A DNA stretch of 64,000 bases, taken from the sequence record PV467749.1; one strand, written 5' to 3'. Source of the DNA: a phage. Below are positions 1-58,056 of the stretch, piece by piece; position 1 is the first letter of the stretch; every line of letters starts with the position of its first letter. The notes beneath the pieces were generated by a model, which was not told where the DNA came from, did not search any database, and saw only the letters and a program-made list of their open reading frames with translations. Both the position numbers and the translations under genes were made by a program.

Positions 1-176
1 ATGTAATTATACACATTGGCTTCTTGATAGTTAGTTCCCAGTGTAGCTTGAACATAGATTTCATTTAACTTAATAATTTTATCAGTATCTGGTAGTTTTG
101 ATGTGTTAATGGCAAATAACTTCAAAAACAGTCCATTTAAGATTGTTAGGTATTCTTCGTCGGTAATGATTCGCAT
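1..176 (-). CDS. family-1 small protein (LGTNYQ motif), C-terminus cut by window edge
   Basis: Minus frame reads MRIITDEEYLTILNG..ATLGTNYQEANVYNY and runs off the left edge; same layout as the copies to its right. Confidence 0.6.
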   Translation of the reverse strand, partial: MRIITDEEYLTILNGLFLKLFAINTSKLPDTDKIIKLNEIYVQATLGTNYQEANVYNY

Positions 177-382
177 TTGCATTGGATAAACCTTTTTAGT
201 TCTTTGATGTAATCATTAATATTGCATTCTTGATAGTTAGTCCCTAGGGTAGCTTGAACATAGATTTCACTCATTAGAATATTTTTTTCTTCATCAGGTA
301 AATCTGTGGTCTTTGCTATATACAATTTTAGAATTAAACTACTTAATAGTTCGTGGTATTCACTTGGTGAAAGGATTTTCAT
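146..382 (-). CDS. family-1 small protein (LGTNYQ motif)
   Basis: Motif ATLGTNYQE. Start set at MKIL, giving an ATGA overlap with the upstream stop (track start 388 adds MQ). Confidence 0.75.
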   Translation of the reverse strand: MKILSPSEYHELLSSLILKLYIAKTTDLPDEEKNILMSEIYVQATLGTNYQECNINDYIKELKRFIQCKCESLPTKNT

Positions 383-594
383 TTGCATGTTCTCAGTACA
401 GATTCTTTAAGTTCATCGATGTAGTCCTCAACGAATTGCTCTTGGAAGTTAGTTCCAACATATAAAAGAACTCTTAAATCTGCTCTAAGTAACTCTTTTT
501 CATCATCATCTATATCAGACAATGTTATGTTTAAGAATTTACTTGTATTAAAGATTAACAATTCTGTTTGTTCACTGTGGCTTAAAATTTTCAT
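379..594 (-). CDS. family-1 small protein (LGTNYQ motif)
   Basis: Tandem paralog, motif YVGTNFQEQ, N-terminus MKILSHSEQ. Confidence 0.75.
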   Translation of the reverse strand: MKILSHSEQTELLIFNTSKFLNITLSDIDDDEKELLRADLRVLLYVGTNFQEQFVEDYIDELKESVLRTCK

Positions 595-802
595 AATCTC
601 TTTTTGCTTTCCTCGCCAAAAGGTACATATACGATTCTTCGTATTGTGCTTGGTAGTTTGTGTTTAAGAGTCGAAACAACTTCTGTTCTGCTAGAACGAG
701 TTGCTTATCTTCATAACAACGATAGCGTATCAACTTTTTGTATTCGATGTTGATTACATCCATTACTATAAGCCCATGTTCATCATCTGTCAAGTGTTTC
801 AT
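572..802 (-). CDS. family-1 small protein (LGTNYQ motif)
   Basis: Tandem paralog, motif LLNTNYQAQ; ATGA overlap with upstream gene. Confidence 0.75.
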   Translation of the reverse strand: MKHLTDDEHGLIVMDVINIEYKKLIRYRCYEDKQLVLAEQKLFRLLNTNYQAQYEESYMYLLARKAKRDYENFKPQ

Positions 803-1041
803 GCATTTTTTCTTTTTCTTATATGTTTAGTTAAAAGGTATATTAGTTTTCTGATGTATTCTTCTTGGTAGTTTGTTCCTAGGAGTGCAAGAAGCTTTGC
901 TTCAACTAGAGCTAATTGACGTTCTTCAAATGTGTGTTCCAGTATGTACTTTGGGTTTGATTTTTTAGAAATTGCACTATTAGTTTTCATTACAATCTTA
1001 TGATATTCATTAACTGTTAGGATTTTTAAATTCTTGAGCAT
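799..1041 (-). CDS. family-1 small protein (LGTNYQ motif)
   Basis: Tandem paralog, motif LLGTNYQEE. Confidence 0.75.
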   Translation of the reverse strand: MLKNLKILTVNEYHKIVMKTNSAISKKSNPKYILEHTFEERQLALVEAKLLALLGTNYQEEYIRKLIYLLTKHIRKRKNA

Positions 1042-1255
1042 GTACCTTTTCCTTTATAGAGAATTTAAGATATCGAAGCATACTTTCAATGTAATACTCT
1101 TGTCTGTCAGTTCCAAGAAAGTACATGAGTTGAATGTATAAAACTTCTGCACTCCTTTCGGCAGGTGACTTGTTTGTGTCGTTTGGAAGTTGATTTGTAA
1201 GTTTTCTGGATTTAATTAATCGTTCTTTTAACTCATCGTCTGTTAAGTATTTCAT
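1010..1255 (-). CDS. family-1 small protein (LGTDRQ variant)
   Basis: Motif FLGTDRQEY. Start set at MKYLTDDE, 1 nt after the upstream stop (track start 1267 adds MQNE). Close to copies at 1257 and 1477. Confidence 0.75.
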   Translation of the reverse strand: MKYLTDDELKERLIKSRKLTNQLPNDTNKSPAERSAEVLYIQLMYFLGTDRQEYYIESMLRYLKFSIKEKVHAQEFKNPNS

Positions 1256-1256
1256 T

Positions 1257-1475
1257 TCATTTTGCATTTACTTTTTCCATAATACTCATTACAAGATGTT
1301 CAATCATATTTTGAACCATAAATTCTTGTTTATCAGTTCCAAGAACGTATTGTAGCTTCTGAAACAATACATTCGCAGACATTTCATATATTGATTGATT
1401 TGGAACGAACTTAAGAGTAATGTTATTGGCTTTTAACATCTTCTCTTGAAATTCTTCATTCGTTAAGTATATCAT
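1257..1475 (-). CDS. family-1 small protein (LGTDKQ variant)
   Basis: Motif VLGTDKQEF; start set at MIYLTNEE (track 1487 adds MQSE). Confidence 0.75.
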   Translation of the reverse strand: MIYLTNEEFQEKMLKANNITLKFVPNQSIYEMSANVLFQKLQYVLGTDKQEFMVQNMIEHLVMSIMEKVNAK

Positions 1476-1476
1476 T

Positions 1477-1701
1477 TCACTTTGCATTTATTTTTTCCAT
1501 AATAGTGATTTTAAGATATTTAATTATACGTTCAACGTGATACTCTTGCCTATCAGTTCCAAGAAGGTATGGTAATGACTGGAATAAAACTTCTGCACTC
1601 CTTTCCGCTGGGGTTTGGTTTGGGTTGTGTGGAAGATATTTTGTAAGTTTTTTGGATTTATCTAGTCTTTCTGTTAACTCATCATGTGTTAAGTATATCA
1701 T
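1477..1701 (-). CDS. family-1 small protein (LGTDRQ variant)
   Basis: Motif LLGTDRQEY; start set at MIYLTHDE, giving an ATGA overlap (track 1713 adds MQNE). Confidence 0.75.
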   Translation of the reverse strand: MIYLTHDELTERLDKSKKLTKYLPHNPNQTPAERSAEVLFQSLPYLLGTDRQEYHVERIIKYLKITIMEKINAK

Positions 1702-1940
1702 TTCATTTTGCATTTAATGTTCCTTACGTAAATTGTCTGGATTAAAAGTGAAATCCATTTTTCTACATATTGGTTTTGATACTGTGTACCTAAGAGGAAC
1801 TGCATTTTAAACTCTGCTTCAAGTTCATATCTCTTTTCTATAGAAAAGCTTAAATGACCATATTCCTTATCGTATCGTCTCATAGCTTCCCCAATTCTAT
1901 CAAATCTTTCTGCTAATCTGATGTTATTCACAATATTCAT
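1698..1940 (-). CDS. family-1 small protein (LGTQYQ variant)
   Basis: Motif LLGTQYQNQ; ATGA overlap upstream. Confidence 0.7.
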   Translation of the reverse strand: MNIVNNIRLAERFDRIGEAMRRYDKEYGHLSFSIEKRYELEAEFKMQFLLGTQYQNQYVEKWISLLIQTIYVRNIKCKMK

Positions 1941-2194
1941 CGATCAGTACACCTCAGTGGTTGGGTCATTTGATAAAAGTACAGCTTACCTTTGATTTCC
2001 AATAGTAACTCCGCGATTAAGCGATTTACTTCTGGCTCTTGATAGTTTGTTCCTAAGAATACACCCATCTTTAACTCACGCATCATAATCATTTTCTTAC
2101 TGTGTTGAATTTCTGGGTTGTGATAGATTGTATTACGTTTGTGTGTAATTTTTGTCATACGCTCGGTATATTCATCTTTACTTAAATTGATCAT
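1937..2194 (-). CDS. family-1 small protein (LGTNYQ motif)
   Basis: Motif FLGTNYQEP; ATGA overlaps on both sides. Confidence 0.75.
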   Translation of the reverse strand: MINLSKDEYTERMTKITHKRNTIYHNPEIQHSKKMIMMRELKMGVFLGTNYQEPEVNRLIAELLLEIKGKLYFYQMTQPLRCTDR

Positions 2195-2427
2195 TTTTTA
2201 TTCTCCAAAGCATCGCATTTATTTTCGATACAATTCATTAGTTCTCTAAGATAGTTTTTTACCTTACCTGCCTGATAGTTCGTCCCCAGGAAGTTGCATA
2301 ACTCTGCTTCTATTATTTTGATTCTTCTGTTATCAGGTTTCAATTTTTTGTTATTGAAGATTTGAATCCTTATATCCCTTGATGCATTTAAACGTTTTTG
2401 ATAATCATGGTAAGATAAATGAATCAT
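2191..2427 (-). CDS. family-1 small protein (LGTNYQ motif)
   Basis: Motif FLGTNYQAG; ATGA overlaps. Confidence 0.75.
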   Translation of the reverse strand: MIHLSYHDYQKRLNASRDIRIQIFNNKKLKPDNRRIKIIEAELCNFLGTNYQAGKVKNYLRELMNCIENKCDALENKK

Positions 2428-2636
2428 TTACTTTGTATCTCTCTCTTGAGGGCATCAATTAACAACAGTACAGCATTCTCTTGATAGTTTGTTCCTAAGA
2501 CTGAAAGCATCTTAATCTCATTTACTACAATCAACTTCTTTGAGCGTTCAATAATGTTACTATTATAAACGGCGTTACGTGCTGGATAAGTTTTTGCAAG
2601 ACGATCATAATATTCATCTTTACTTAAATTAATCAT
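2424..2636 (-). CDS. family-1 small protein (LGTNYQ motif)
   Basis: Motif VLGTNYQEN; start set at MINLSKDEY, giving an ATGA overlap (track 2642 adds MQ). Confidence 0.75.
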   Translation of the reverse strand: MINLSKDEYYDRLAKTYPARNAVYNSNIIERSKKLIVVNEIKMLSVLGTNYQENAVLLLIDALKREIQSK

Positions 2637-2851
2637 TTGCATTTACTTTTGACCTCTTTCAGTAGAGCATCAACCCATATGTCTACATACATTTGTTGAT
2701 AGTTTGTGTCTAATAGTGCACCTACATATAGTTCAGCTACCATTGCGTGCTTTAGGTCAACAGGGATGCTCTTATCAGATTGAATCTTTACCCTTCTGCT
2801 TCCACATGTTTTCAGAAGCTTAACATATTCGTAACCTATTAATTTTCTCAT
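2633..2851 (-). CDS. family-1 small protein (LDTNYQ variant)
   Basis: Motif LLDTNYQQM; ATGA overlap. Confidence 0.75.
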   Translation of the reverse strand: MRKLIGYEYVKLLKTCGSRRVKIQSDKSIPVDLKHAMVAELYVGALLDTNYQQMYVDIWVDALLKEVKSKCK

Positions 2852-3063
2852 TCTCTGGATAACACCTTGTTGCGTAAGGCACTTAACAATACGTCAGTGT
2901 AGATGTTTTGATAGTTTGTTCCTACGAAAGCACCCAACTTCATTTCAGCTATTATAACACATTTGTCCTCTTGTGCAATAGACTTGTCTAAAGAAATACT
3001 AACAACTTTCCTTCTTATAGCTTGTAACCTCCAATGATACTGAAACTCATTTAGTGTTATCAT
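2848..3063 (-). CDS. family-1 small protein (LGTNYQ motif)
   Basis: Motif FVGTNYQNI. Confidence 0.75.
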   Translation of the reverse strand: MITLNEFQYHWRLQAIRRKVVSISLDKSIAQEDKCVIIAEMKLGAFVGTNYQNIYTDVLLSALRNKVLSRE

Positions 3064-3298
3064 TATCTCGTCTCCATATCTCGGTTCTAATGTGTTGACA
3101 TTGTGCTTCGATGAACATATCTATTGATTTGGCAATTGCGTTTTTATCTGTGCCAGTCATCAGTACAAGCATCTCGGCCTCACAGTGAAGTAAACGCATG
3201 ATATCATAGGGTAATATTCCAGATACCGTGTCATAGTGTTTCTGTGCCAGTGTCTGTAATAGTTTACAATACATTTTGTGATTTAGTCTGTGTCGCAT
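3047..3298 (-). CDS. family-1 small protein, divergent member
   Basis: Same size and position in the array, but the motif is degraded to MTGTDKNAI. Confidence 0.6.
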   Translation of the reverse strand: MRHRLNHKMYCKLLQTLAQKHYDTVSGILPYDIMRLLHCEAEMLVLMTGTDKNAIAKSIDMFIEAQCQHIRTEIWRRDNDNTK

Positions 3299-3537
3299 TG
3301 TTTATTCCATTCTTTTTTTTTGGCCTTGATGGTTTTATATTGGATTTGGTTTCTTAATGCTGATAAGTATCGTTGAATGAACAGATCTTGATAGTTTGTT
3401 CCAATGAATTTCATAAGATAAAGTTCACCGTTGATAACATCCACTTCAGGTGCACCATATAAGGCATTGTTTTTTCTAAGGGCATGGATTAAAGAGAATA
3501 GGGCAGTTTGATACTCAACTCCTGATAAAATCTTCAT
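3283..3537 (-). CDS. family-1 small protein (LGTNYQ motif)
   Basis: Motif FIGTNYQDL; start set at MKILSGVEY (track 3558 adds MIICSQN). Confidence 0.7.
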   Translation of the reverse strand: MKILSGVEYQTALFSLIHALRKNNALYGAPEVDVINGELYLMKFIGTNYQDLFIQRYLSALRNQIQYKTIKAKKKEWNKQCDTD

Positions 3538-3772
3538 GTTTTGTGAGCAAATAATCATCTAGTTTATCCTGTATAACATTCGTTAATTGTTCGATATATT
3601 CTGTGCAAAACTTATCTTGATATTGAGTCCCCATAAAGTACAGCAACCATAGCTCATTAACTTTAGCTCGCATTTGGTTCCATGTAAGGCTGGGGTCATC
3701 GTAGACTATCCTTGCTATAGGGGTTAGTTTACGGACTATAGTTTCATATTCATCTAGTGTTAAGTGTTTCAT
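3515..3772 (-). CDS. family-1 small protein (GTQYQ variant)
   Basis: Motif FMGTQYQDK; ATGA overlap upstream. Confidence 0.75.
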   Translation of the reverse strand: MKHLTLDEYETIVRKLTPIARIVYDDPSLTWNQMRAKVNELWLLYFMGTQYQDKFCTEYIEQLTNVIQDKLDDYLLTKHEDFIRS

Positions 3773-3987
3773 TTACATTTGTCCCTTATTAGATCAGTGA
3801 GGGCAACTATGTGTGCAACAACATACTCTTCCTGAAAGTTCGTCCCCAGTACAGCCATCATGCGTATATCGGTGGTGTTTATCCTGTGTTCCCTTACACA
3901 TAAACCTTCTGTGTGAGGAAGTGTAAAATATTTGTTTATTGCAGCAACGATAATTTTATTCTTCTCGGAGTTACTTAAATGTTTCAT
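3769..3987 (-). CDS. family-1 small protein (LGTNFQ variant)
   Basis: Motif VLGTNFQEE; ATGA overlaps. Confidence 0.75.
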   Translation of the reverse strand: MKHLSNSEKNKIIVAAINKYFTLPHTEGLCVREHRINTTDIRMMAVLGTNFQEEYVVAHIVALTDLIRDKCK

Positions 3988-4196
3988 AGTTTACTCCTGA
4001 TATAATTCTGAAGTGCAATTAAGTATTCCCCTACATAATACACCTGAAAGTCTGTATCAAGGAATGCACCCATAAGTAAATCTTTTTCTAATACCCTTGA
4101 TAAGTTAAGGTCTGCATTTGAAAGGTATATAAGTAAGATTTCACCCTGTGCGGAATTGAAACGTTTCTTATATTCTTCTGGTGTTAAAAAAATCAT
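3984..4196 (-). CDS. family-1 small protein (LDTDFQ variant)
   Basis: Motif FLDTDFQVY; close duplicate of 4193..4408 (shared DLNL..VLE..LLGAFL and YIRSKL). Confidence 0.75.
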   Translation of the reverse strand: MIFLTPEEYKKRFNSAQGEILLIYLSNADLNLSRVLEKDLLMGAFLDTDFQVYYVGEYLIALQNYIRSKL

Positions 4197-4408
4197 AATT
4201 TGCTCCTGATATATTTCTCAAGAGATGACAAATACTTTTCCTCATAATACTTCTGATAGTCTGTTCCTAAGAATGCACCCAAAAGTATTTCATTTTCCAA
4301 TACCTCGGCTAAGTTTAAATCAGAAGTCTCTTCGTATATTATGAGGATTTCAAGTTGTCTGGCAGCGATGCGTTCAGTATATTGATATGAGTTTTCTATA
4401 ATAATCAT
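4193..4408 (-). CDS. family-1 small protein (LGTDYQ variant)
   Basis: Motif FLGTDYQKY; ATGA overlaps. Confidence 0.75.
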   Translation of the reverse strand: MIIIENSYQYTERIAARQLEILIIYEETSDLNLAEVLENEILLGAFLGTDYQKYYEEKYLSSLEKYIRSKL

Positions 4409-4614
4409 AATTTACTCTTTATATCTTGAATTAAAAATCGAATCCATTCTTCAACATAATCTTCCTGATGGTTTGTGTTCAGTACAGCCAACATGCGGAT
4501 CTCTGCTCTTGCAACTTCAATTTCAGTTTTAGGAAGGTCTTTGCTGATATCCACCATTAAGTCCATGTATTTCAAGATAAGACCGTATGATTGGGTTCGT
4601 GTTATAGTTTTCAT
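4405..4614 (-). CDS. family-1 small protein (LNTNHQ variant)
   Basis: Motif VLNTNHQED; ATGA overlaps. Confidence 0.75.
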   Translation of the reverse strand: MKTITRTQSYGLILKYMDLMVDISKDLPKTEIEVARAEIRMLAVLNTNHQEDYVEEWIRFLIQDIKSKL

Positions 4615-4811
4615 TGTTTCCTCGTGGACAATATTTTATTTTTCAATGTATCCATATATTGAATCACCCATCTTTCCTGATAGTTAGTTCCCAAAGTAAT
4701 CAAAAGGTATAACTCCATTCGTTCTACGTGTGTGTCTGTATTATAAATCTTTGTGAAGTTTTTACGTAACAGTTCTTGATAATCTTCTTTATTTAAAATA
4801 CGCATTTTCAT
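4611..4811 (-). CDS. family-1 small protein (LGTNYQ motif)
   Basis: Motif TLGTNYQER; ATGA overlap. Confidence 0.75.
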   Translation of the reverse strand: MKMRILNKEDYQELLRKNFTKIYNTDTHVERMELYLLITLGTNYQERWVIQYMDTLKNKILSTRKQ

Positions 4812-5005
4812 AGTCTACCTTTTATGTCCCTTCGTAATTCTTGTAAGTATAGTTCGATATACTTTTCTTGATAGTTAGTTCCTATGAAAAGTTTCATAAC
4901 CAATTCACGCTTATATGCAATACCACGGATATGTGACATATGTAGGATATATGCCATGTTGGATATGAGTGTGTGGTTGTGCTCTTCTTGAGTTAAAATA
5001 CGCAT
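4808..5005 (-). CDS. family-1 small protein (LGTNYQ motif), first gene of the array
   Basis: Motif FIGTNYQEK; SD GGAG upstream; a promoter lies just upstream. Confidence 0.75.
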   Translation of the reverse strand: MRILTQEEHNHTLISNMAYILHMSHIRGIAYKRELVMKLFIGTNYQEKYIELYLQELRRDIKGRL

Positions 5006-5063: not shown

Positions 5064-5254
5064 TAACATTTTATAAGTAATACCCCTTTATCGAAGTCGC
5101 TAAGGTTACCCGCCCTTTAGCCCCCTACGCATTTTGCCATAGTCCAATCCCTTTTTATTCATAAAAGTCAAGGGATTACCTATGCATTTTTTTAACGCTG
5201 AAGTTTAAAAATGCCTTGACTTTTTTATGATTCAGTACTAAATCCTTTTACGCA

Positions 5255-5464
5255 TTAATCCTTCGTTACGCTTACGATTATCTGTGTATCCCCATAGTCC
5301 TGCCATACTTCCACGCCAGCCGTCGCCCTGGTTAGTCGTGCTGTCATCTGCTTAATGGTCTTAGGCTTTAGTGGAACCTGTTGCAGTACTGTACGCATAG
5401 CACTATCGACGTTATCATGTACGCCTGCAATAGTGCCTAGGACGCTGTATACTGTATAGAACAT
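5255..5464 (-). CDS. hypothetical protein
   Basis: 69-aa ORF, SD AGGAGGG upstream; GGCCGC..GCGGCC stem-loop in the leader. Confidence 0.65.
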   Translation of the reverse strand: MFYTVYSVLGTIAGVHDNVDSAMRTVLQQVPLKPKTIKQMTARLTRATAGVEVWQDYGDTQIIVSVTKD

Positions 5465-5532
5465 ATGTATGCCCTCCTGATATAGTTAAGGCCGCTACAA
5501 GGCGGCCTATGATGTTTGGTGATGTGTAACGC

Positions 5533-5934
5533 TTACAGTCCTAAGATAGTGCGTGCTTCGTTACGTTCCGTACACAGCTGCATGATGTGAGCAAGTAAGT
5601 CCTTGCTAATGTATCCGGTGTTCATAGCTTCACGAATAGATACATCATAAGCACCGAACCCAGTGCGAACGATACGCACATCATTCAGGTTAGTATTATA
5701 GATACCGCCGAGATCAACGGCTTCGAATACTACATCAACAGAATATTCATTGTTGCCATCGTGGAAGTTTTCCAGTGCAATAGTATTGGAAACCGCCCAA
5801 CGTTTGCAGTTTCCAATGATGCGGCACTGTTCCGGTTGGATAGTGCCATTACTTACAGCGTACTCCAGTGCATCTTTACCAAAAGTCCGAGCCAGTACTA
5901 AAACGTCAGCGAAGGAAGTGATTGAGAAGGTCAT
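5533..5934 (-). CDS. hypothetical protein
   Basis: Start moved to MTFSITSF (SD AAGGAG). The 21 extra residues in the track are read-through of the promoter/hairpin cassette. Confidence 0.75.
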   Translation of the reverse strand: MTFSITSFADVLVLARTFGKDALEYAVSNGTIQPEQCRIIGNCKRWAVSNTIALENFHDGNNEYSVDVVFEAVDLGGIYNTNLNDVRIVRTGFGAYDVSIREAMNTGYISKDLLAHIMQLCTERNEARTILGL

Positions 5935-5988
5935 GATAAAACTCCTTAATTTAGGAGGGAGAACCATTTCCCCCTCTCTATGTAAAAC

Positions 5989-6016
5989 ATTATACATGAA
6001 TCTAAGTACTATGCAA
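5989..6016 (-). promoter_or_regulatory. promoter + 5' stem-loop cassette (PeSL-like)
   Basis: TTGCAT-N16-TATAAT, then GAGGGGGAAATGGTTCTCCC hairpin (about 5954-5978); drives 5533..5934. Confidence 0.7.
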
Positions 6017-6023
6017 GTACTTT

Positions 6024-6356
6024 TTACATTTTGATACCTGGATTCAGGTAGCGGTGAGATCCATACTCTGGATCGGTTTCGGTCCAGTACTGTAAATCGA
6101 TAGTACCTTTCGCGTTAATCTTGTCTACCAGCTTATTCATCTTAGCGTATACTACATCAGCATCGATGCGTTTAAAGCCAGTGGCTTTAGTGAAGTAGTA
6201 GTGATTTGCTTCACTATCATTCAGGATGTACCGAGAACCGTTTGCCGTTTGTGCGATAATGATTGAGTATTCTACGTTACGGTCGAGGCCGTCGATGAAT
6301 ACAGAGGAAACATTAGTACGGATGAATGCTTTAACGATAGCGATTGAAGTAGTCAT
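6024..6356 (-). CDS. hypothetical protein
   Basis: 110-aa ORF, SD GGAGAT, own promoter. Confidence 0.75.
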   Translation of the reverse strand: MTTSIAIVKAFIRTNVSSVFIDGLDRNVEYSIIIAQTANGSRYILNDSEANHYYFTKATGFKRIDADVVYAKMNKLVDKINAKGTIDLQYWTETDPEYGSHRYLNPGIKM

Positions 6357-6409
6357 TTTGAATCTCCTAACTTTGTGGGCCGTCGCACCATTGCCGCCCT
6401 ACGAGATAC

Positions 6410-6438
6410 ATTATCGCAGTACTGATATACTTTGTCAA
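6410..6438 (-). promoter_or_regulatory. sigma70-type promoter
   Basis: TTGACA-N17-GATAAT, followed by a GC-rich hairpin; drives 6024..6356. Confidence 0.65.
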
Positions 6439-6550
6439 TACTTTTTTATTAATAGTTTTCACCCCACCAGCAGATAGTTACTCACCGTTATTAACTATAT
6501 ATTTTGGATACACCTATGCACCCTGTGGGCTAGTTTTTGTCTATGCGTAT

Positions 6551-6590
6551 ATAATAGCAAAGGGACTGACCGGAGTCAATCCCTTTTTTT
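6551..6590 (-). promoter_or_regulatory. terminator-promoter fusion cassette
   Basis: Hairpin GGGATTGAC-TCCG-GTCAGTCCC (6562-6583) contains the -35 TTGACT; N17; TATTAT (6551-6556). Sits directly after the stop of 6602..6802. Confidence 0.6.
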
Positions 6591-6601
6591 ATTCTTTTTT
6601 G

Positions 6602-6802
6602 TTAGATGATTCTCCAATCATCAACGATCATGGTAAGATACCGAACCAGTGATTCGAGTGATTCGTGTTCTCGATAGTCTGCCGCTCCACCAGCGGTACA
6701 AGTACAGCCGATTAAGCCGTTTTGTAGTTCCTGGATCTTTACGTCGATCTGGTTGGCTTTAGCTTCTTTCAGTACTGCAACCAGGGCGATAGCGATAGAC
6801 AT
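6602..6802 (-). CDS. hypothetical protein
   Basis: 66-aa ORF, SD GGAG, own PeSL-like cassette. Confidence 0.65.
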   Translation of the reverse strand: MSIAIALVAVLKEAKANQIDVKIQELQNGLIGCTCTAGGAADYREHESLESLVRYLTMIVDDWRII

Positions 6803-6857
6803 AATGTTTTACTCCAAACTATTGGCGGGAGAACTATTCCCCCGCTCTATGTAAAAC

Positions 6858-6885
6858 ATTATACATTACTGGTTAGTACTGTCAA
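6858..6885 (-). promoter_or_regulatory. promoter + 5' stem-loop cassette (PeSL-like)
   Basis: TTGACA-N16-TATAAT, then GAGCGGGGGAATAGTTCTCCCGCC hairpin. Confidence 0.7.
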
Positions 6886-6892
6886 ATAGTTT

Positions 6893-7150
6893 TTATGAAA
6901 TATCTTCGATGTAGTCGGCCCATTTCATTTTTTCAGTACTGTCAATGGCGACCGGATTATTTGGATCAAACCATTCACCATCACCGCAATACATACCCAC
7001 GGCTACGGTTTTATAGCCATCCTGGGCAGTACACCACGACATTGCACGATAGATATGGCCTTTAACTGGTTGCAGTACTGGTAACGTTTTATGGTCTTCT
7101 ACGTAGGCCATAGCTTGTGGATTTACCCGATATTGTGTGAACTGATCCAT
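6893..7150 (-). CDS. hypothetical protein
   Basis: 85-aa ORF with own promoter. Confidence 0.7.
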   Translation of the reverse strand: MDQFTQYRVNPQAMAYVEDHKTLPVLQPVKGHIYRAMSWCTAQDGYKTVAVGMYCGDGEWFDPNNPVAIDSTEKMKWADYIEDIS

Positions 7151-7178
7151 TATGTTTCCCCTTGTAGTTAGTAAAGTT

Positions 7179-7207
7179 ATTACATCAGTACTATCAAGCT
7201 ATGTCAA
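7179..7207 (-). promoter_or_regulatory. sigma70-type promoter
   Basis: TTGACA-N17-TGTAAT; no hairpin. Confidence 0.55.
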
Positions 7208-7226
7208 TAGTACTGAAATAAAACTT

Positions 7227-7451
7227 TTAGATTAGATTATTGAGGCCGTCAATGGTAGACTCACCTTCTTCTTTCTCCCATTGTCGGTAGTACTTCCATG
7301 CTTCATGATAGGTGGCGATTAGTTCATCTTTTTGATCCTGGTTACATGCCAGTACTGAATCACGGTGAGCGGTGTTATAGATAGAATCGAATGATTTCTT
7401 CTCTTCTGCCAGGTTAGCTACTTCCCGCATCAGTTCATCAAAGTTAGCCAT
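7227..7451 (-). CDS. hypothetical protein
   Basis: 74-aa acidic ORF, SD AAGGAG. Confidence 0.7.
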   Translation of the reverse strand: MANFDELMREVANLAEEKKSFDSIYNTAHRDSVLACNQDQKDELIATYHEAWKYYRQWEKEEGESTIDGLNNLI

Positions 7452-7498
7452 TTTATTACTCCTTTTAGTGGGGGAGGATATCTCCCCCTATGCAAAAC

Positions 7499-7526
7499 AT
7501 TATACTTTGTTTTAGTTATTATGCAA
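7499..7526 (-). promoter_or_regulatory. promoter + 5' stem-loop cassette (PeSL-like)
   Basis: TTGCAT-N16-TATAAT, then GGGGGAGATATCCTCCCCC hairpin (7470-7488). Overlaps the stop of the upstream gene. Confidence 0.7.
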
Positions 7527-7782
7527 GTACTTTTTTCATATAAACATTAAATTCTACACCGCCGTAACCTTCCACGATGATATGTTTTGCGTTATCACGT
7601 TTGCACATAGTGAAACCGTTGTTGATGTGTTCTGAATTTTCCAGGGCGACATCACCGATAGCGGCACATACAGCACTAATAACAGTATTCCGCAAAGTAC
7701 TGGTATCATTGGCGGTCATAGTAGTTTGCAGTACTACGTTGTCGTATACGTGTGCATTGATAGTGATTTCGATAGTGTTCAT
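7519..7782 (-). CDS. hypothetical protein
   Basis: Start moved to MNTIEITI (SD AGGAG). The track N-terminus MFYIERGKWF.. is translated cassette sequence. Confidence 0.7.
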   Translation of the reverse strand: MNTIEITINAHVYDNVVLQTTMTANDTSTLRNTVISAVCAAIGDVALENSEHINNGFTMCKRDNAKHIIVEGYGGVEFNVYMKKVLA

Positions 7783-7834
7783 GTTGTATCTCCTGGACTT
7801 GAGGGGAAACCATTTCCCCCTCTCGATATAAAAC

Positions 7835-7862
7835 ATTATACGTTAATCTAACTACAATGCAA
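7835..7862 (-). promoter_or_regulatory. promoter + 5' stem-loop cassette (PeSL-like)
   Basis: TTGCAT-N16-TATAAT + GGGGGAAATGGTTTCCCC hairpin. Confidence 0.7.
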
Positions 7863-7869
7863 GTACTTT

Positions 7870-8061
7870 TTAAATTTTATTTCCGATATAGTCCGGCATG
7901 TTCTTTTCAGTCATACGCTTTGCTAATGTCTGCATATGGCTTATAGCGTTCAAGGTGTCTTCCTCCAGGGATGAATCGAGATAATCAGGATCATTCTTCA
8001 CCTTGCAATGATTATGATAGCGTAGTACTGCCAGTACTTTTTTAACTTCTTCAACTGTCAT
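7870..8061 (-). CDS. hypothetical protein
   Basis: 63-aa ORF, ATGA-coupled to 8058..8330. Confidence 0.65.
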   Translation of the reverse strand: MTVEEVKKVLAVLRYHNHCKVKNDPDYLDSSLEEDTLNAISHMQTLAKRMTEKNMPDYIGNKI

Positions 8062-8330
8062 AATAAGTACTCCACTTCGTTAGCTTTCAGGTTAGTATCA
8101 ATCATCAATGGTTTTTTGTAGTTCACAAAACGATTAGTTTTTTCGATAGCAAATCCCATATAATCCAGCTTACTAACAGTACATTCATTCTTAAAAACTT
8201 CTTTCGCTGCATCGATGGCTGATTGCATGGATAACCGACCATCTAAATTAATGTTTCCAAATGATCCACCAGCAGAAGTAGGATTACCGTTCATATCTTT
8301 AATGATCATAGTAGCGGAGTAGCTGGACAT
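8058..8330 (-). CDS. hypothetical protein
   Basis: 90-aa ORF, SD AAGGAA. Confidence 0.7.
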   Translation of the reverse strand: MSSYSATMIIKDMNGNPTSAGGSFGNINLDGRLSMQSAIDAAKEVFKNECTVSKLDYMGFAIEKTNRFVNYKKPLMIDTNLKANEVEYLL

Positions 8331-8383
8331 AATTTTGTTTCCTTTTATTGGTGGGGAGAACTATTCTCCCCTTGATGTAAACT

Positions 8384-8411
8384 ATTATACAGTACTGATA
8401 TACTTTGTCAA
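8384..8411 (-). promoter_or_regulatory. promoter + 5' stem-loop cassette (PeSL-like)
   Basis: TTGACA-N16-TATAAT (TG-extended) + GGGGAGAATAGTTCTCCCC hairpin. Confidence 0.75.
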
Positions 8412-8417
8412 ATACTT

Positions 8418-8825
8418 TTATTCGCCCATATAGATTAGATTATCATCGCCTACATAGGGATCGCAAACGTTGATTTCTTCGCAGTACTTAGTGAATATAT
8501 CATCATAGTGACCGATATCACGATCCCAAAAACCAGTGCCGTGACCTTCGCGAGTAAGAAAGAGATCATGACCTGCATGACTATAAGTATAATCAGGATT
8601 ATGGTGTTTTTGTACTGTTTCCATATCTTCACCATGTACAGCAAGGAAACGTGAACATGCAATCACTGCCGCTTGATGGGCTTGCTCTGATAATTCATAA
8701 TCTTCCAGGTATTCGCCGTTCTCATTGTGTACTGTACTGAATTGCATAGCTTCAATGTAACCAGCGACCATTGCAGCATGATTTTTATCGTTGGCGATGG
8801 ACCGAGCTTGATTAGTAGTAGTCAT
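8418..8825 (-). CDS. conserved hypothetical protein (GHDLFLTREGHGTGFWDR motif)
   Basis: 135-aa ORF. The H-D-x-F-L-T-R-x-G-H-G-x-G-F-W-D motif resembles a widespread phage/plasmid domain that I cannot name. Confidence 0.8.
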   Translation of the reverse strand: MTTTNQARSIANDKNHAAMVAGYIEAMQFSTVHNENGEYLEDYELSEQAHQAAVIACSRFLAVHGEDMETVQKHHNPDYTYSHAGHDLFLTREGHGTGFWDRDIGHYDDIFTKYCEEINVCDPYVGDDNLIYMGE

Positions 8826-8877
8826 GATTTTATTCCTTTTAGTATCGGGGAGAACTATTCTCCCCTTGATGTAAACT

Positions 8878-8905: not shown

Positions 8906-8908
8906 TAC

Positions 8909-9347: not shown

Positions 9348-9354
9348 ATCTTTT

Positions 9355-11757: not shown

Positions 11758-11760
11758 TAC

Positions 11761-50861: not shown

Positions 50862-51233
50862 TTATAACATACGTTTTTTACGAATAGTATTGTGGATATT
50901 TTTTAAGTAGTTCACACCTTTACACAACCCATAAAATACACCAGCACATACACCAAATGCAGGTATCATACATGCAAACATCGTTATCAATTCCCACATC
51001 TCCATGCCATCTTGATTCGGTCCAAGGTCAAAGATAACAACCGAAACCAAACCTGTGATACTTAGCATATAATATGCCATGAAGATAATAAAAGAAACAA
51101 TACCAACATCAGAGCGAACTGAATTTAGCATATTATATACTGGGGTTACACAGAAGTAATACAATAACCAAATCAAAGAACCTAAACTAAACACAATAAT
51201 AGTAATGATCGAAAATATTTCACGATAACTCAT
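50862..51233 (-). CDS. small multi-pass membrane protein, TM family member
   Basis: 123 aa, 3-4 hydrophobic helices, basic tail IHNTIRKKRML. Confidence 0.75.
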   Translation of the reverse strand: MSYREIFSIITIIVFSLGSLIWLLYYFCVTPVYNMLNSVRSDVGIVSFIIFMAYYMLSITGLVSVVIFDLGPNQDGMEMWELITMFACMIPAFGVCAGVFYGLCKGVNYLKNIHNTIRKKRML

Positions 51234-51234
51234 T

Positions 51235-51597
51235 TTAGTTCCTCTTACCTAAACGCTCATGGATTTCGGAAATCTTATTATACATCCATGCCAGCAACTC
51301 AACGGATGCACAGAGAATAACCACACACAGTGTTAGTGAACATACCATAATACCAAATGTTATAAAATTCGAACTCGATGTTAATAATGCAACCAGCATT
51401 AGAATAAAACCAAAATTGAATGCTGTACTCAACACAGTATATGCTGGACTATATCTCCTTTGTATTACATCATATATATTTGATAATGGTCGCTTATGGA
51501 AGTACTTCCCAATGCACACGAATGCATTCAGTGAGAAGATAAATGTATACGCCATTACCATTAATTGACCAATAAAAGATAATTCAATATTATTCAT
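51235..51597 (-). CDS. small multi-pass membrane protein, TM family member
   Basis: 120 aa; tail IHERLGKRN. Confidence 0.75.
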   Translation of the reverse strand: MNNIELSFIGQLMVMAYTFIFSLNAFVCIGKYFHKRPLSNIYDVIQRRYSPAYTVLSTAFNFGFILMLVALLTSSSNFITFGIMVCSLTLCVVILCASVELLAWMYNKISEIHERLGKRN

Positions 51598-51598
51598 G

Positions 51599-51970
51599 TT
51601 ATCCTCGTTTGCGGTATTTGATGCTTTGGTGCATTCTCTGAAAATGTGGAACTAATACATATTGTACGGTTTGCCAAATTACCATCAGATTATGGACAGC
51701 ACCACCGAGTAGACCAAACACTACACAGATAATTGCCAGTACTGGATCACCATCTACCATACCCCATTTGAATATATGTAAAATCCATACAGTGATAAGT
51801 AGTAATAAACTAATCCAATACGTAGTAAAAAATCCTGCATGTAATTCATAGTCATCAGCAATTTCATCGTATACGGTTTCCAAGAAGGATACACAGAAGA
51901 ACTTGCCAATAATAATAATTGTACTAATAAACAACATAGCAGTTAATATAATAAGTGCAATTTCCATCAC
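51599..51970 (-). CDS. small multi-pass membrane protein, TM family member
   Basis: 123 aa; tail MHQSIKYRKRG; ATGA overlap upstream. Confidence 0.75.
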   Translation of the reverse strand: MMEIALIILTAMLFISTIIIIGKFFCVSFLETVYDEIADDYELHAGFFTTYWISLLLLITVWILHIFKWGMVDGDPVLAIICVVFGLLGGAVHNLMVIWQTVQYVLVPHFQRMHQSIKYRKRG

Positions 51971-52281
51971 ATCCCTCGTTTACGCTTTTGATTGCGTCTA
52001 AATTCGGTTAGCCCACGACTAATCGGTGGCATCAGACTACATAAAAAAATAACAGTTGTTGGTAATAACATGAAGTCAATCATTGCTGTATTAACAGGTG
52101 GATCACATACCAAATAATACAAACAAGTAATACTAATTATGGTTGACCCAATAAAAGGAATACAAAATTCTTTTATCTGTTTTTCAACATAATCAAACAT
52201 CTTCAATACAAATAAAAATCCAACCCAACACATAATAAAATAGAATGAATAAAGCGTGTAAATCAATGTTACGATATCCAT
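51967..52281 (-). CDS. small multi-pass membrane protein, TM family member
   Basis: 104 aa; tail EFRRNQKRKRGM. Confidence 0.75.
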   Translation of the reverse strand: MDIVTLIYTLYSFYFIMCWVGFLFVLKMFDYVEKQIKEFCIPFIGSTIISITCLYYLVCDPPVNTAMIDFMLLPTTVIFLCSLMPPISRGLTEFRRNQKRKRGM

Positions 52282-52619
52282 TAGTACCTCGCATCAGGAA
52301 CTTTAGCACGTAATTTATGAACGACTGGGAACAACAACAAACTTACATATGCAATAGTTGAACCCCAATAGAATACTAATATAATTGGTTCACCATTGGA
52401 ACGGAACCCTCTACTAATCATTGAGTAGTGAATAATAGGCATGAACATCGCCATACCAAACCATGCGTGTAATTTTAATTGCAGCATGTTATCAGAGATG
52501 AATACTGAAATTGGTCGTTTGAAGAACCACATCAGAAAGTAGAATCCAGCACTAAGGATATAGTACATAGTACTAACTTTCATATACCACGGCAGTAAGT
52601 GTAAAAAATATTCCATCAT
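52281..52619 (-). CDS. small multi-pass membrane protein, TM family member
   Basis: 112 aa; tail KLRAKVPDARY. Confidence 0.75.
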   Translation of the reverse strand: MMEYFLHLLPWYMKVSTMYYILSAGFYFLMWFFKRPISVFISDNMLQLKLHAWFGMAMFMPIIHYSMISRGFRSNGEPIILVFYWGSTIAYVSLLLFPVVHKLRAKVPDARY

Positions 52620-52963
52620 TCCTCCGGTATCTTGTTTCGAAGTTCAATCATAACACAACAAAGTTTAATGGTCAAGTAAAAAACTACACATATCATACCC
52701 AATGTACCGTAAACTGCGGAGAATGCTGGCAGTACCTTTCCTGTGAGTGTTGCTACAATACATGCTATCAATGTTGATGCAAACAACGATTGATTAATGA
52801 AAGAATTCATAAAATCTTCACCATTACGCTTATAGAATTGTCGTTTAAAATACCATCCTAGAAACATAACTACCCAAAATGTTACATAACCTGTTAGAAT
52901 AATCCCTGCAATTGAATGTGCAACAGAACTACTCTTTAAAAACTCAAGATAAGATTCAAACAT
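52616..52963 (-). CDS. small multi-pass membrane protein, TM family member
   Basis: 115 aa; tail ELRNKIPEE. Confidence 0.75.
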   Translation of the reverse strand: MFESYLEFLKSSSVAHSIAGIILTGYVTFWVVMFLGWYFKRQFYKRNGEDFMNSFINQSLFASTLIACIVATLTGKVLPAFSAVYGTLGMICVVFYLTIKLCCVMIELRNKIPEE

Positions 52964-53301
52964 TAGAAGTCCCCACGAATTTTTGCTCTACCATTAATGA
53001 TGAGATTAAACAAGTATATCAGCACCCAAATTAGTAATCCAAGGAATACAATATATTGTGATATTGAGTTCAACTGTGGATTAGCACAATAAATTAAGTG
53101 TGCGATAAGACCAACAATTGCAAACATACCTTGGATAATAGTGAAAAGAAGTAGTGAAATGTTTCCATCTGGATACAGTTTGAAAACGATTTTCTTTTTA
53201 AAATACCATAGTACTACAACTAGTGCATGATAAAAGAAAAAACCAAACAGATAAATCAAAGTAATACTAAGCATTGTATCTGAATTAAAAAACTCAAGCA
53301 T
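52963..53301 (-). CDS. small multi-pass membrane protein, TM family member (first of the operon)
   Basis: 112 aa; tail INGRAKIRGDF. Confidence 0.75.
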   Translation of the reverse strand: MLEFFNSDTMLSITLIYLFGFFFYHALVVVLWYFKKKIVFKLYPDGNISLLLFTIIQGMFAIVGLIAHLIYCANPQLNSISQYIVFLGLLIWVLIYLFNLIINGRAKIRGDF

Positions 53302-56299: not shown

Positions 56300-56355
56300 G
56301 ACAATTCCTCGATTGTGGGATGAGAAGTTCATCCCCTTGATAAACATTATACAGT

Positions 56356-56383
56356 ACTGAATGAGTTTGTCAACTCAAAATAA
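56356..56383 (-). promoter_or_regulatory. promoter + 5' stem-loop cassette (PeSL-like)
   Basis: TTGACA-N16-TATAAT + GGGATGAacttcTCATCCC hairpin; overlaps the 3' end of 56375..56755. Confidence 0.7.
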
Positions 56384-56755
56384 ATTCATTTCATGTGCGT
56401 ATTGTGGTTCAAGATGCGATAAGTTTTTGAAGCTTTCTTTCAACTCAGCATCATCTACATACACCGTGCCTGGTACATTCCCCATAGTGAAACCTACCCA
56501 CACAGTCATGTCACCAGTCCCTAAGCGTGGCATTGATAGCGAACCATCAGGTGAAACATCAAACGCTACACTGAAGTCATCAGTAACAACGTCAGAACCA
56601 TTTTCGAGAATAATACATCCACTATCTTTAAGCTTCTGAATGTGGATAGCAGCCTCTACAGCACGTTTGAAGTTATAGTAAGACTCTTTATCCTCAAACA
56701 TTGATTGTTTAATCAGACGCTTGTTTAGCTCGGTTACTTTGTGCATTTGACGCAT
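56375..56755 (-). CDS. hypothetical protein
   Basis: 126-aa ORF. Confidence 0.75.
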   Translation of the reverse strand: MRQMHKVTELNKRLIKQSMFEDKESYYNFKRAVEAAIHIQKLKDSGCIILENGSDVVTDDFSVAFDVSPDGSLSMPRLGTGDMTVWVGFTMGNVPGTVYVDDAELKESFKNLSHLEPQYAHEMNLF

Positions 56756-57012
56756 TACTTATCCATCTCCCACAGTTGTAGAATTTCATAAGAGCCTGGT
56801 GGTGCTGGATTCCTGATCTCAGGGAATTGAGTACTTTTAGGATTTCCACCAGCATTAAATTCGTCAAGTAATGATTCCAGTTCGCGACGATCCTGAACAA
56901 CATAAACACAATCACCTGAACCTTCTTCGAGAATCATTTCACTTCCTGCACAATCCCATACTGTTGAGATACATAGAATCTCTTTTGTATTTTTATTACG
57001 CAATGCAAACAT
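56755..57012 (-). CDS. hypothetical protein
   Basis: 85-aa ORF; 1-nt overlap with the downstream start. Confidence 0.7.
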   Translation of the reverse strand: MFALRNKNTKEILCISTVWDCAGSEMILEEGSGDCVYVVQDRRELESLLDEFNAGGNPKSTQFPEIRNPAPPGSYEILQLWEMDK

Positions 57013-57020
57013 AGCACCCC

Positions 57021-57365
57021 CTATCGATTTGGCATTTTATCTCGTAATCTAATGAGATAATCAACCACAGACCATGTTGAAATGAAAGTGATATAAGTAC
57101 CGAAGAATCCTACCAGAATAAAGGCAACAAGTGTACTCCCATTTGGATCTTCAGCTTTAATACCGATGATACCATCAAATACAGTGAAAAATGTAGACAT
57201 ACACGTTAAACAGATGTACATCACCAATAAGAATTCATGTTTCAATGATGGATATAAACGGTCAAAGAGTTTATAAAATTTAAAGTACAGTAGGAGTATA
57301 CCAACAAAGACATAGAAAGTAAACAGTGTTGTTATGATATATGATATTAAATTTAAATTATACAT
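57021..57365 (-). CDS. small multi-pass membrane protein, TM family member
   Basis: Start set at MYNLNLISY (2 nt after the upstream stop); tail LIRLRDKMPNR. Confidence 0.7.
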   Translation of the reverse strand: MYNLNLISYIITTLFTFYVFVGILLLYFKFYKLFDRLYPSLKHEFLLVMYICLTCMSTFFTVFDGIIGIKAEDPNGSTLVAFILVGFFGTYITFISTWSVVDYLIRLRDKMPNR

Positions 57366-57366
57366 C

Positions 57367-57714
57367 TCAACGCTCCGGTAGATTATCACGTAATGTTTTG
57401 ATTCGATTATACAATTTCATTGCTACATTTCCAAATAAACCAAAACCCATTACTAAAATGTATGCGATGATCATAGTAATAATTACAATAGTACCTAGAC
57501 TGTAATGTACTGCACTGATACCCATTATTGTTTCTACAATGATGTGAGCAACAGAAATAATCAAAAGTACTACTACAATTGGATGATTTGGATACATTCG
57601 GTTAAACAATGTTTTGTACTTAAAGAAGTACAGTACTCCACCAAATAAGAAGTACACAATGTAGATTGATGCAACTGCATAAGCAAACGCATTAGTGTAA
57701 AAAATCATTATCAA
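57367..57714 (-). CDS. small multi-pass membrane protein, TM family member
   Basis: 115 aa; tail IKTLRDNLPER. Confidence 0.75.
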   Translation of the reverse strand: MIMIFYTNAFAYAVASIYIVYFLFGGVLYFFKYKTLFNRMYPNHPIVVVLLIISVAHIIVETIMGISAVHYSLGTIVIITMIIAYILVMGFGLFGNVAMKLYNRIKTLRDNLPER

Positions 57715-57717
57715 TCC

Positions 57718-58056
57718 TTACTTTTCAGGGATTTTATTACGCCACTCATCGATGCGATGAAGCAGTTTAAAGAGCAAAAATATCGGAACAGTAGCTATCA
57801 TAGTAGCAATTGTTAGTAATGTCAACACCGATACGAGATTTAATTCGTCAGTACTATATCCACATACCAGTGCTTCAATTATCCCCCACGTACATACACT
57901 GAACATCAAAAATGAAATTGGTGCATCGTAGTATATGCGTTGATACAAGGTCGTGTATCGGAAGAATGCAATAATGTAACAAAACATGTAATACACCCAA
58001 ATTAACGATACTACATAAAATGATACCTTATTAATTAATTCAAAATGATGTTCCAT
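57718..58056 (-). CDS. small multi-pass membrane protein, TM family member
   Basis: 112 aa; tail IDEWRNKIPEK (compare ELRNKIPEE at 52616). Confidence 0.75.
   Translation of the reverse strand: MEHHFELINKVSFYVVSLIWVYYMFCYIIAFFRYTTLYQRIYYDAPISFLMFSVCTWGIIEALVCGYSTDELNLVSVLTLLTIATMIATVPIFLLFKLLHRIDEWRNKIPEK

Follow-up and report, generated by a model that had tools for sequence, protein, structure and literature searches.

In the present study, we analysed a stretch of 64,000 nucleotides from a phage genome (sequence record PV467749.1; "the window" hereafter means this whole stretch), in which four tandem gene families flank a collapsed direct terminal repeat (DTR), with the main attention given to an array of RCC1-like propeller genes. 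The window was placed by megablast in the genus Asteriusvirus, the PBECO4/121Q group of jumbo Escherichia coli myophages with genomes of 348-386 kb. WPEC3, fEgEco12, vB_Ec-M-J and other phages match the right flank (53-64 kb) at 98-99% identity over 86-100% of its length, and the best single record covers at most 58% of the propeller region and at most 61% of the first 25 kb. No tRNA genes and no Rfam families were found within the whole window. From left to right, the order is family 1 (F1), DTR, family 2 (F2), propellers and membrane proteins, as follows.

146..5005, minus strand: F1 array, 22 overlapping genes for helical proteins of 65-91 aa with an LGTNYQE motif (phrog_4148)
5103..25573, no strand assigned: DTR equivalent (20.5 kb, single copy here), with small minus-strand genes and many consensus sigma-70 promoters
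25876..30252, minus strand: F2 array, 19 solid members of 59-78 aa, four-helix
30513..50825 (first true start 30588), plus strand: propeller array, 16 RCC1-like genes, one of them frameshifted
30588, 31791, 33013, 34191, 35389, 36582, 37838, 38979, plus strand: starts of propeller genes 1-8
40190, 41370, 42613, 43864, 45113, 46368, 47788, 49701, plus strand: starts of propeller genes 9-16
50862..53301, minus strand: membrane block a, 7 abutting genes for proteins of 104-123 aa with three predicted transmembrane (TM) helices and a basic C-terminal tail
57021..58056, minus strand: membrane block b, 3 genes for proteins of 112-122 aa with the C-tail motif R-x-K/N-x-P-E/N

The families were recovered from a mechanical set of open reading frames (ORFs) by all-against-all BLASTP, iterative hidden Markov models (HMMs) and leave-one-out HMMs. 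An earlier note on this DNA had proposed the four families at these coordinates, as tandem arrays of about 33 kb in total with three of them adjacent, and each of these statements was reproduced, the recomputed extent being ~33.2 kb, or 52% of the window. The same note described young duplicates standing beside highly diverged members. The divergence was confirmed, with median within-family identities of 21-25%, and the youth was not: no paralogue pair in any family reached 70%, and the top global identities were 49% for the propellers, 58% for F1, 58% for F2 and 28% for the membrane set. Self-BLASTN of the window revealed no internal high-scoring segment pair (HSP) of at least 300 bp at 80% identity or more, the longest internal HSP being 683 bp at 68%. 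Judged from their sequences, the four families are ancient paralogue sets rather than recent amplifications.

The homologous regions of fEgEco12, Ecwhy_1, WPEC3, PBECO4 and Salmonella phage SD-2_S15 were then scanned with the HMMs of the window families. First, copy numbers are nearly constant among the close relatives. F1 is cut by the window edge, so that the window holds the promoter-distal portion of an operon-like array; at least 22 copies are present here, compared with full arrays of 26-31 genes in the relatives (31 in WPEC3, 30 in fEgEco12, 30 in Ecwhy_1 and 26 in SD-2_S15; the PBECO4 F1 array lies outside the region compared). F2 numbers 19 copies in the window, 18 in WPEC3, 19 in fEgEco12, 19 in Ecwhy_1, 16 in PBECO4 and 14 in SD-2_S15, and the membrane set numbers 10 (7+3) in each E. 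coli phage compared. Second, for nearly every window copy in these three families, a positional orthologue is found in unchanged order, mostly 86-100% identical in WPEC3, fEgEco12 and Ecwhy_1, apart from a few F1 orthologues at 70-82% in close relatives, and typically 60-99% identical in the PBECO4/SD-2 lineage; for the membrane set, the range among relatives is 62-100%. Third, the pairwise ratio of nonsynonymous to synonymous substitution rates (dN/dS) ranges from 0.14 to 0.45 over all categories. It is 0.27-0.45 for F1 and F2 (0.27-0.38 for F1 alone), somewhat above the 0.15-0.24 of the terminal-repeat genes, and about 0.2 for the membrane set. Values above 1 were observed in isolated pairs only (one F2 pair against PBECO4, one against SD-2_S15 and one F1 pair against fEgEco12), and gene-wide positive selection was rejected, as dN/dS is below 1 in every category. 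Because their positional orthologues are kept under purifying selection, the F1, F2 and membrane families are stable, in contrast to an accordion.

The propellers are the family in which turnover was seen. Pfam searches returned RCC1, RCC1_2 and RCC1-like domain (RLD) hits, and the curated threshold was reached in two of the three copies tested: 49701-50825 (PF00415 at 50.2 bits against a cut-off of 21.7) and 30570-31724 (PF00415 at 22.5 bits, PF13540 at 27.1 bits). For the most divergent copy (46368-47717), Pfam returned nothing and phrog_4219 was matched at 3e-16; a match of 5.9e-59 to this PHROG was also obtained in the array. A profile of all 16 copies, which share only 18-49% pairwise identity, matched the solved RLD structures of HERC1 (7.9e-33), UVR8 (1.7e-29), RPGR (7e-29, profile positions 24-330) and RCC1 (2e-21). 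These profile matches point to an RLD-type beta-propeller fold. The product name "chromosome condensation" carried by such genes is a transfer from eukaryotic RCC1 and is uninformative on their function here.

Phages whose flanks are 95-99% identical differ in propeller content, which is mosaic. When 71 full-length propellers from six genomes were clustered at 70% identity, 27 types were obtained, of which 3 occur in all six genomes and 10 in one genome only; four types (starts 30588, 34191, 43864 and 45113) were found only in the window. No type occurs twice in any one of the six genomes. A near-identical boundary block of ~110-115 bp stands ahead of 12 of the 16 propeller genes of the window, as in the following example, which also contains the shared N-terminal codons discussed below.

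34125..34232, plus strand: example of the boundary element, with hairpin, box, AGGAGG Shine-Dalgarno sequence and first 12 codons
34191..34226, plus strand: example of the N-terminal tag, the first 12 codons

The element consists of a hairpin, GCCAGTAC-loop-GTACTGGC, with a T-run, followed by the box TTAAATATAGTATAATGAATAA, AGGAGG and the ATG, and its conservation extends across the first 12 codons. The box was matched 12 times against 0.01 expected and is otherwise absent from the window, and a hairpin with a T-run sits upstream of each of its copies. In a collection of 50,697 phage records, the element was found only in 37 Asteriusvirus records, at 2-15 places per genome. When the window was aligned with WPEC3, Ecwhy_1, fEgEco12 and PBECO4, all ends of the high-identity blocks fell between -74 and +49 of gene starts, with the exception of two junctions (48941/48974) located in the 3'-terminal spacer of the array. 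Most of the propeller genes are self-contained units between such blocks, and related phages differ by the gain, loss, replacement and reordering of whole ~1.1-kb cassettes, with breakpoints inside the boundary block. We propose that the cassettes would be exchanged by homologous recombination between boundary blocks, within a genome or between co-infecting genomes.

These results bear on the gene accordion, the analogy by which the earlier note had explained the arrays. Under such a model, the arrays would have arisen by recent tandem amplification and would grow and shrink under pressure from host range or immunity, in the manner of poxviruses. The variable number of boundary elements across the 37 genomes is consistent with it, as are the 7-16 genes per genome carrying the shared N-terminal tag in the six genomes and the published reading of the arrays as products of tandem duplication (PMC5646251, PMC7247149). 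However, paralogue identity below 70% throughout, the absence of long internal repeats of high identity from the window, and propeller types that are never doubled within a genome are all unlike an accordion; the close relatives hold nearly constant numbers of F1 (30-31), F2 (18-19) and membrane (10) genes in the same order as positional orthologues, and where phages differ, cassettes have been replaced by unrelated ones and dosage has not changed. As these genomes now stand, the accordion model is largely refuted, and we regard it as highly improbable. Arrays of the same size and sequence across relatives, the outcome that the earlier note had named as contrary to its idea, are nearly what was observed for F1, F2 and the membrane set, whereas the propeller arrays differ.

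The cassettes share a short N-terminal peptide. All 16 propellers of the window begin with MLPF(V/A)RM(F/V)(D/K)YGN (12 residues, MLPFxRMxxYGN), and the same tag is present on the 71 propellers of the six genomes; its amino acids are constant despite synonymous codon differences among the copies. It is also found in three further genera and on other folds. In Erwinia phage Kaldavass, eight tightly packed genes start with MLPFP..., five of them RCC1 and three others. In Cronobacter phage GAP32, the tag is on gp1 (RCC1) and on gp2, a protein annotated as virion structural whose sole Laminin_G_3 match is weak. Pectobacterium phage CBB carries seven tandem tagged genes adjoining its terminal repeat, comprising three Kelch propellers, two Laminin_G_3 (concanavalin A (ConA)-like lectin) proteins and two GAP32_002-like proteins, and five of the seven are labelled structural in its RefSeq record. 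A tblastn search with the 20-residue tag (E of at most 10; 50,697 records) matched 61 records, all of Rak2-like jumbo phages of 310-386 kb, and no other phage in that collection. The peptide is thus conserved as protein, in several genera and on several cargo folds, and it tracks with virion association.

Conservation of the N-terminus could be a by-product rather than a targeting signal, arising from DNA-level homogenisation of a recombination or initiation block or from a "velcro" strand of the propeller. Many beta-propellers close their ring with an N-terminal strand, and the first 36-45 nt of the Asteriusvirus propeller genes do belong to the repeated boundary block. Yet the window copies that have no upstream block (38979, 40190 and 49701) retain the tag, and in Kaldavass and CBB, where the tagged genes lie 8-13 nt apart with no boundary block, the peptide is kept with different codons. 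The tag, moreover, is also present on Laminin_G_3 and other non-propeller proteins. We therefore consider a by-product origin quite improbable.

Virion association has been reported for several of these proteins. Mass spectrometry (MS) of phAPEC6 virions detected eight RCC1-like proteins with 1-5 unique peptides each (PMC7247149 Table 1), at least two propellers, JP4_581 and JP4_577, were detected in JP4 virions (PMC12648861 supplement), and the single RCC1 homologue of GAP32, gp1, was reported as structural (PMC5259590). In the CBB paper, CBB_551 and CBB_552 were detected by MS within a 10-kb cluster, CBB_534-553, which we equate with the tagged CBB array on the basis of domain content and position. 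The MLPFxRMxxYGN peptide may thus be a virion-loading or docking tag, which would let diverse binding modules (RCC1 here; Kelch and ConA-like lectin in other genera) join the particle at low copy number. Each phage would therefore carry a "one of each" assortment of ligand-binding heads. These heads would act either on the particle surface, in adsorption and host range, or as ejected internal proteins like those of T4. Modules of the lectin-like and propeller kinds point to the binding of ligands, possibly on "hairy" fibres, and an internal, ejected location is equally possible. That the propellers are themselves the hairs of the tail or capsid is unlikely, because the CBB authors report hairs yet found no RCC1 homologue; they could still sit on such fibres.

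A different role has been suggested in the literature on the basis of the RCC1 name, in which the propellers would condense DNA or form an inner-body scaffold and so organise the 350-kb genome within the head. Their detection in virions would agree with this role, an inner body has been seen in 121Q and phAPEC6 (PMC5646251, PMC7247149), and a short N-terminal tag shared by diverse proteins recalls the capsid-targeting sequence of T4. However, a core scaffold is not expected to vary among phages that are 95-99% identical, and only 3 of the 27 types are common to the six genomes. CBB places Kelch and lectin-like cargo behind the same tag, and the MS peptide counts per propeller are low. RCC1-like domains are platforms for binding proteins or ligands, and the name RCC1 comes from a eukaryotic phenotype; to our knowledge, these domains have no intrinsic DNA-condensing activity. 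A scaffold role is thus regarded as unlikely.

Herein, we propose that F1, F2 and the membrane genes form old, conserved arrays, that the propeller cassettes are exchanged at boundary blocks, and that the N-terminal tag loads their products onto or into the virion. We hold this explanation, taken as a whole, to be probable. A stronger version, in which a clade-wide Rak2-like loading tag is coupled with a recombination-driven library of at least 27 cassette types, one of each per phage and with different host-binding or host-neutralising heads in each isolate, is plausible but falls somewhat short of probable. In that version, any binding module set behind the tag would enter the particle. Several points weigh against our explanation. 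First, the gene-by-gene comparison covered six genomes, and recombination in the boundary blocks is deduced from the positions of breakpoints. Second, the box, as a putative promoter, contains TATAAT with no TTGACA-like -35 element at 16-18 nt, and the assignment of genes as "early" or "late" follows from promoter motifs and strand. Third, the MS support for the propellers is thin, at 1-5 peptides each, and is silent on their place within the virion. Fourth, no conserved Glu and no (L/I)xE cleavage motif was found in or just after the tag in the alignment of 16 copies, unlike the T4 capsid-targeting sequence, and in the propellers the tag could partly serve blade closure. Finally, the homology of 2-4 members of the membrane set is unproven by sequence.

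Two irregularities within the propeller array are conserved among relatives.

48973..49623, minus strand: unrelated 216-aa gene between propellers 15 and 16 (phrog_34359), at the same position in relatives
42613..43792, plus strand: frameshifted propeller, in which a tagged N-terminal piece of 59 aa precedes a remainder of 358 aa in the +1 frame

The frame of the latter changes directly after "...LYMRG", at CGTGGACGGAAACC, a sequence lacking homopolymer runs. WPEC3, Ecwhy_1 and PBECO4 share this split, with the downstream part 97-100% conserved, and it marks either an old, retained pseudogene or a site of recoding.

The arrays are also arranged in a defined way around the genome ends. The edges of the DTR equivalent were set by alignment to the fEgEco12 DTR (1-20993), established as 20,993 bp by PhageTerm and restriction digests (PMC13070987), and to the annotated terminal repeat of the vB_Ec-M-J record (1-21525; 21,525 bp). 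The 300 nt spanning the edge are 100% identical between the window and fEgEco12 at one end and 98.7% at the other, and the vB_Ec-M-J edge falls on the same base as the edge derived from fEgEco12. The first gene of F1 begins 98 nt beyond one DTR edge and the last gene of F2 stops ~300 nt beyond the other, a layout repeated in fEgEco12, vB_Ec-M-J and WPEC3. Therefore, in the packaged linear DNA, F1 would lie by one copy of the repeat, and F2, the propellers and the membrane set by the other. On the minus strand of the DTR, 18 sigma-70 promoters match at least 11 of 12 consensus positions, many of them perfectly, compared with none in F2, one in F1 and one in the propeller array; perfect TTGACA-N16/17-TATAAT promoters precede most of the small DTR genes. 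Such promoter density suggests that the DTR is a strong early region for the host RNA polymerase.

6885, 8411, 8905, 11327, 11757, 12026, 12366, 14005, 14865, 15179, minus strand: examples of DTR promoters

F1 and F2 are both compact arrays of small genes. F1 genes overlap by 4-44 nt at every junction. The AlphaFold2 (AF2) model of an F1 protein reached a predicted local distance difference test score (pLDDT) of 94.9 and matched structurally only members of its own family, and homologues in a collection of 5.8 billion proteins came only from Asteriusvirus-type contigs or short metagenomic pieces. The F2 genes abut, with spacings of -8 to +20 nt, and their 19 members gave leave-one-out HMM E-values of 1e-3 to 2e-18; the F2 model (pLDDT 89.3) had no fold match in the PDB. 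Two further genes belong to this stretch.

30249-30476, minus strand: doubtful 20th F2 member, leave-one-out E of 0.94
27818-28477: unrelated 219-aa gene that interrupts F2 (phrog_29152)

In all three arrays of small proteins (F1, F2 and membrane), the gene layout resembles that of a long operon with translational coupling. Because of their operon form and their position at the edges of a promoter-rich repeat, F1 and F2, together with the DTR genes, probably encode early proteins for host takeover or anti-defence.

The membrane set is the loosest of the four families. All ten proteins are 104-123 aa long with a basic C-terminal tail, and the three-TM profile is predicted for nine of them. In leave-one-out HMM tests, six of the ten were significant, two marginal and two not significant. 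Block b forms one BLASTP cluster with leave-one-out E-values of 6e-5 to 4e-10, and an HMM built from this trio recruits the block a gene 52963-53301. A few PHROG cross-hits also tie members together, the matched PHROGs having no known function, and a Pfam search of the set returned sub-threshold noise only. Weak homologues (HMM E of 7e-5 to 1.5e-3) lie in CBB directly behind its tagged array, and these syntenic homologues indicate that the membrane family is older than the genus. The order of terminal repeat, tagged virion-protein array and three-TM genes is common to Asteriusvirus and Mimasvirus (CBB 346486-356530, GAP32 1-6000). No F2 genes lie at the syntenic position in CBB, and F2 therefore appears to have been inserted later, in Asteriusvirus. 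For the three-TM family, a role at the inner membrane is probable.

Two broader suggestions of the earlier note can now be weighed. It had taken this region as the adaptive or accessory arm of the genome, and the families are indeed lineage-specific, accessory in appearance and close to the genome ends, with variable propeller content; the part that leaned on the accordion analogy falls away. It had also suggested that the families may be functionally linked. Here, the number of propellers ranges from 11 to 15 in close relatives while F1, F2 and the membrane set are nearly constant, and the propellers lie on the opposite strand from the other families with a putative promoter class of their own. 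The sole hint in favour of a link, and a weak one, is between propellers and membrane proteins, as the tagged array and the membrane genes are neighbours also in the distant CBB.

Several further observations were made along the window. Within the DTR region, a 28-nt hairpin, AAAGGGATTGACTCCGGTCAGTCCCTTT, is present in three identical copies on the minus strand (6559-6586, 9316-9343 and 12581-12608), with a -35-like TTGACT in the stem followed by TATTAT; these resemble the promoter-early stem-loop (PeSL) composites of terminator and promoter. Stretches of the DTR at ~7870-8065, 11685, 14890, 21150-21450 and 23430-23500 match, at 80-90% nucleotide identity, about 190 unrelated E. coli myophages of 135-155 kb, which are rV5-like (Phapecoctavirus, Justusliebigvirus) together with some records labelled Campylobacter phage, and this suggests a recent horizontal exchange of small early genes. 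BLASTP revealed paralogues inside the DTR region, namely a trio (7519-7836, 8909-9265 and 18503-18787) and the pairs 9971-10270 and 10271-10546, 10859-11263 and 22841-23143, 11350-11673 and 17861-18184, and 21151-21420 and 23196-23474; the longest DNA-level pair among them is 338 bp at 77%. A BLASTP cluster of seven plus-strand ORFs in the DTR (8727-8912, 11585-11854, 16104-16262, 16628-16813, 18403-18558, 20679-20864 and 23456-23764) was rejected as a gene family, since these ORFs lie antisense to or between minus-strand genes and were judged a translation artefact; they most likely mirror repeated intergenic or regulatory DNA.

The GC skew changes sign at ~26 kb and ~50 kb. The second flip (50.8 kb) coincides with the switch of coding strand at the junction of the propeller and membrane arrays, and the first (25.9 kb) lies inside the minus-strand F2 array, ~4.7 kb ahead of the strand switch at 30.5 kb. 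The lowest G+C contents (0.31-0.35) are those of F1, F2 and the first propeller genes. To the right of membrane block a, the stretch 53369-54912, between a 257-aa P-loop-like gene (53369-54142) and the downstream genes, varies among relatives; it carries a 137-aa HNH endonuclease here (54197-54610), an extra endonuclease gene of 1.5 kb in WPEC3, a RaK2-like gene of 1.3 kb in Ecwhy_1 and other endonucleases in PBECO4 and SD-2_S15. Two minus-strand proteins of 503 aa (59517-61028) and 132 aa (61861-62259) are similar to each other and are annotated as virion structural in relatives; they are probably the counterparts of gp035c and gp037c of phAPEC6, which were detected by MS. Annotations related to superinfection ("immunity to superinfection", "lytic conversion lipoprotein") occur in relatives near 55277-55528 and 59194-59445, and "protein spackle" is annotated in their repeat region, with fEgEco12 g10, at 5284-5583, among these loci. 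Pfam gave no support for such products for the two window ORFs tested (55277-55528 and 59194-59445).

Parts of this picture have been published. The same arrays are described in the available portions of Hua et al. 2017 (PMC5646251), Buttimer et al. 2017 (PMC5259590) and Wagemans et al. 2020 (PMC7247149), which report multi-copy RCC1 genes (13 in 121Q, 6 in PBECO4 and 11 in phAPEC6) and the long small-gene array of 121Q; tandem duplication is proposed there as a route of jumbo-genome growth (PMC5646251, PMC7247149). Those portions of the three papers contain no mention of the high divergence and age of the copies, the lack of young ones or their one-to-one conservation, nor of the boundary element, the breakpoints and the shared N-terminal tag, nor of the equivalence of the RCC1 array to the Kelch/lectin cluster of CBB and the position of the arrays at the repeat edges. 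Both the cassette mechanism and the N-terminal tag seem to be novel. At least for Asteriusvirus-type phages, the idea of growth by recent tandem duplication is replaced by one of old, diversified and individually maintained arrays, of which the sole dynamic one changes through cassette exchange. The present results also provide a testable handle on the 10-17 unexplained "chromosome condensation" genes per genome in coliphages that are therapeutic candidates; these genes share the putative loading tag and have regulatory units of their own, and published evidence points to their products in virions. Should the tag function in the way suggested here, it would offer a simple means of bringing foreign proteins into or onto the particles of jumbo phages; the cassette set, which differs between otherwise near-identical phages, would then be a candidate for what determines host range or defence evasion.

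Comparison with known systems places these arrays as follows. Gene accordions and multigene families in large DNA viruses of eukaryotes include the amplification of K3L in poxviruses, the multigene families (MGFs) of African swine fever virus (ASFV) and the repeat-protein expansions of giant viruses. The present arrays share with them the form of lineage-specific tandem families near the termini of a large double-stranded DNA virus. However, they contain no near-identical copies and show no dosage variation of single genes, and they more closely resemble old, diversified terminal multigene families. A nearer parallel is the modular shuffling at PeSLs in T4-type phages (Arbiol et al. 2010, PMC2839356; Comeau et al. 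2014, PMC4122927). There, too, short composites of terminator hairpin and promoter are repeated between non-essential genes, and whole genes have been inserted, deleted or replaced between close relatives, the junctions lying in the repeats. The propeller repeat differs in that it runs on through the Shine-Dalgarno sequence and the first 12 codons, so that the protein tag is carried along with it. Moreover, the PeSL promoter is a strong early sigma-70 promoter, whereas the propeller box has no -35 element; PeSLs flank early ORFans, whereas the propeller boxes flank genes of putative virion proteins; and the propeller cassettes all belong to one protein family. The second parallel is the T4 internal proteins (IPI, IPII, IPIII and relatives), which share a capsid-targeting sequence (CTS) (PMC3012670). 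In both systems, diverse proteins with fast turnover have only a short N-terminal peptide in common, and published MS supports virion association for the tagged proteins. The propeller tag is unrelated to the CTS in sequence, and the T4 cargo consists of small basic proteins, in contrast to the 25-45-kDa propellers and lectin-like domains found here. The propeller array is thus a variation on two themes already known from phages, namely shuffling of the PeSL type and cargo tagging of the CTS type.

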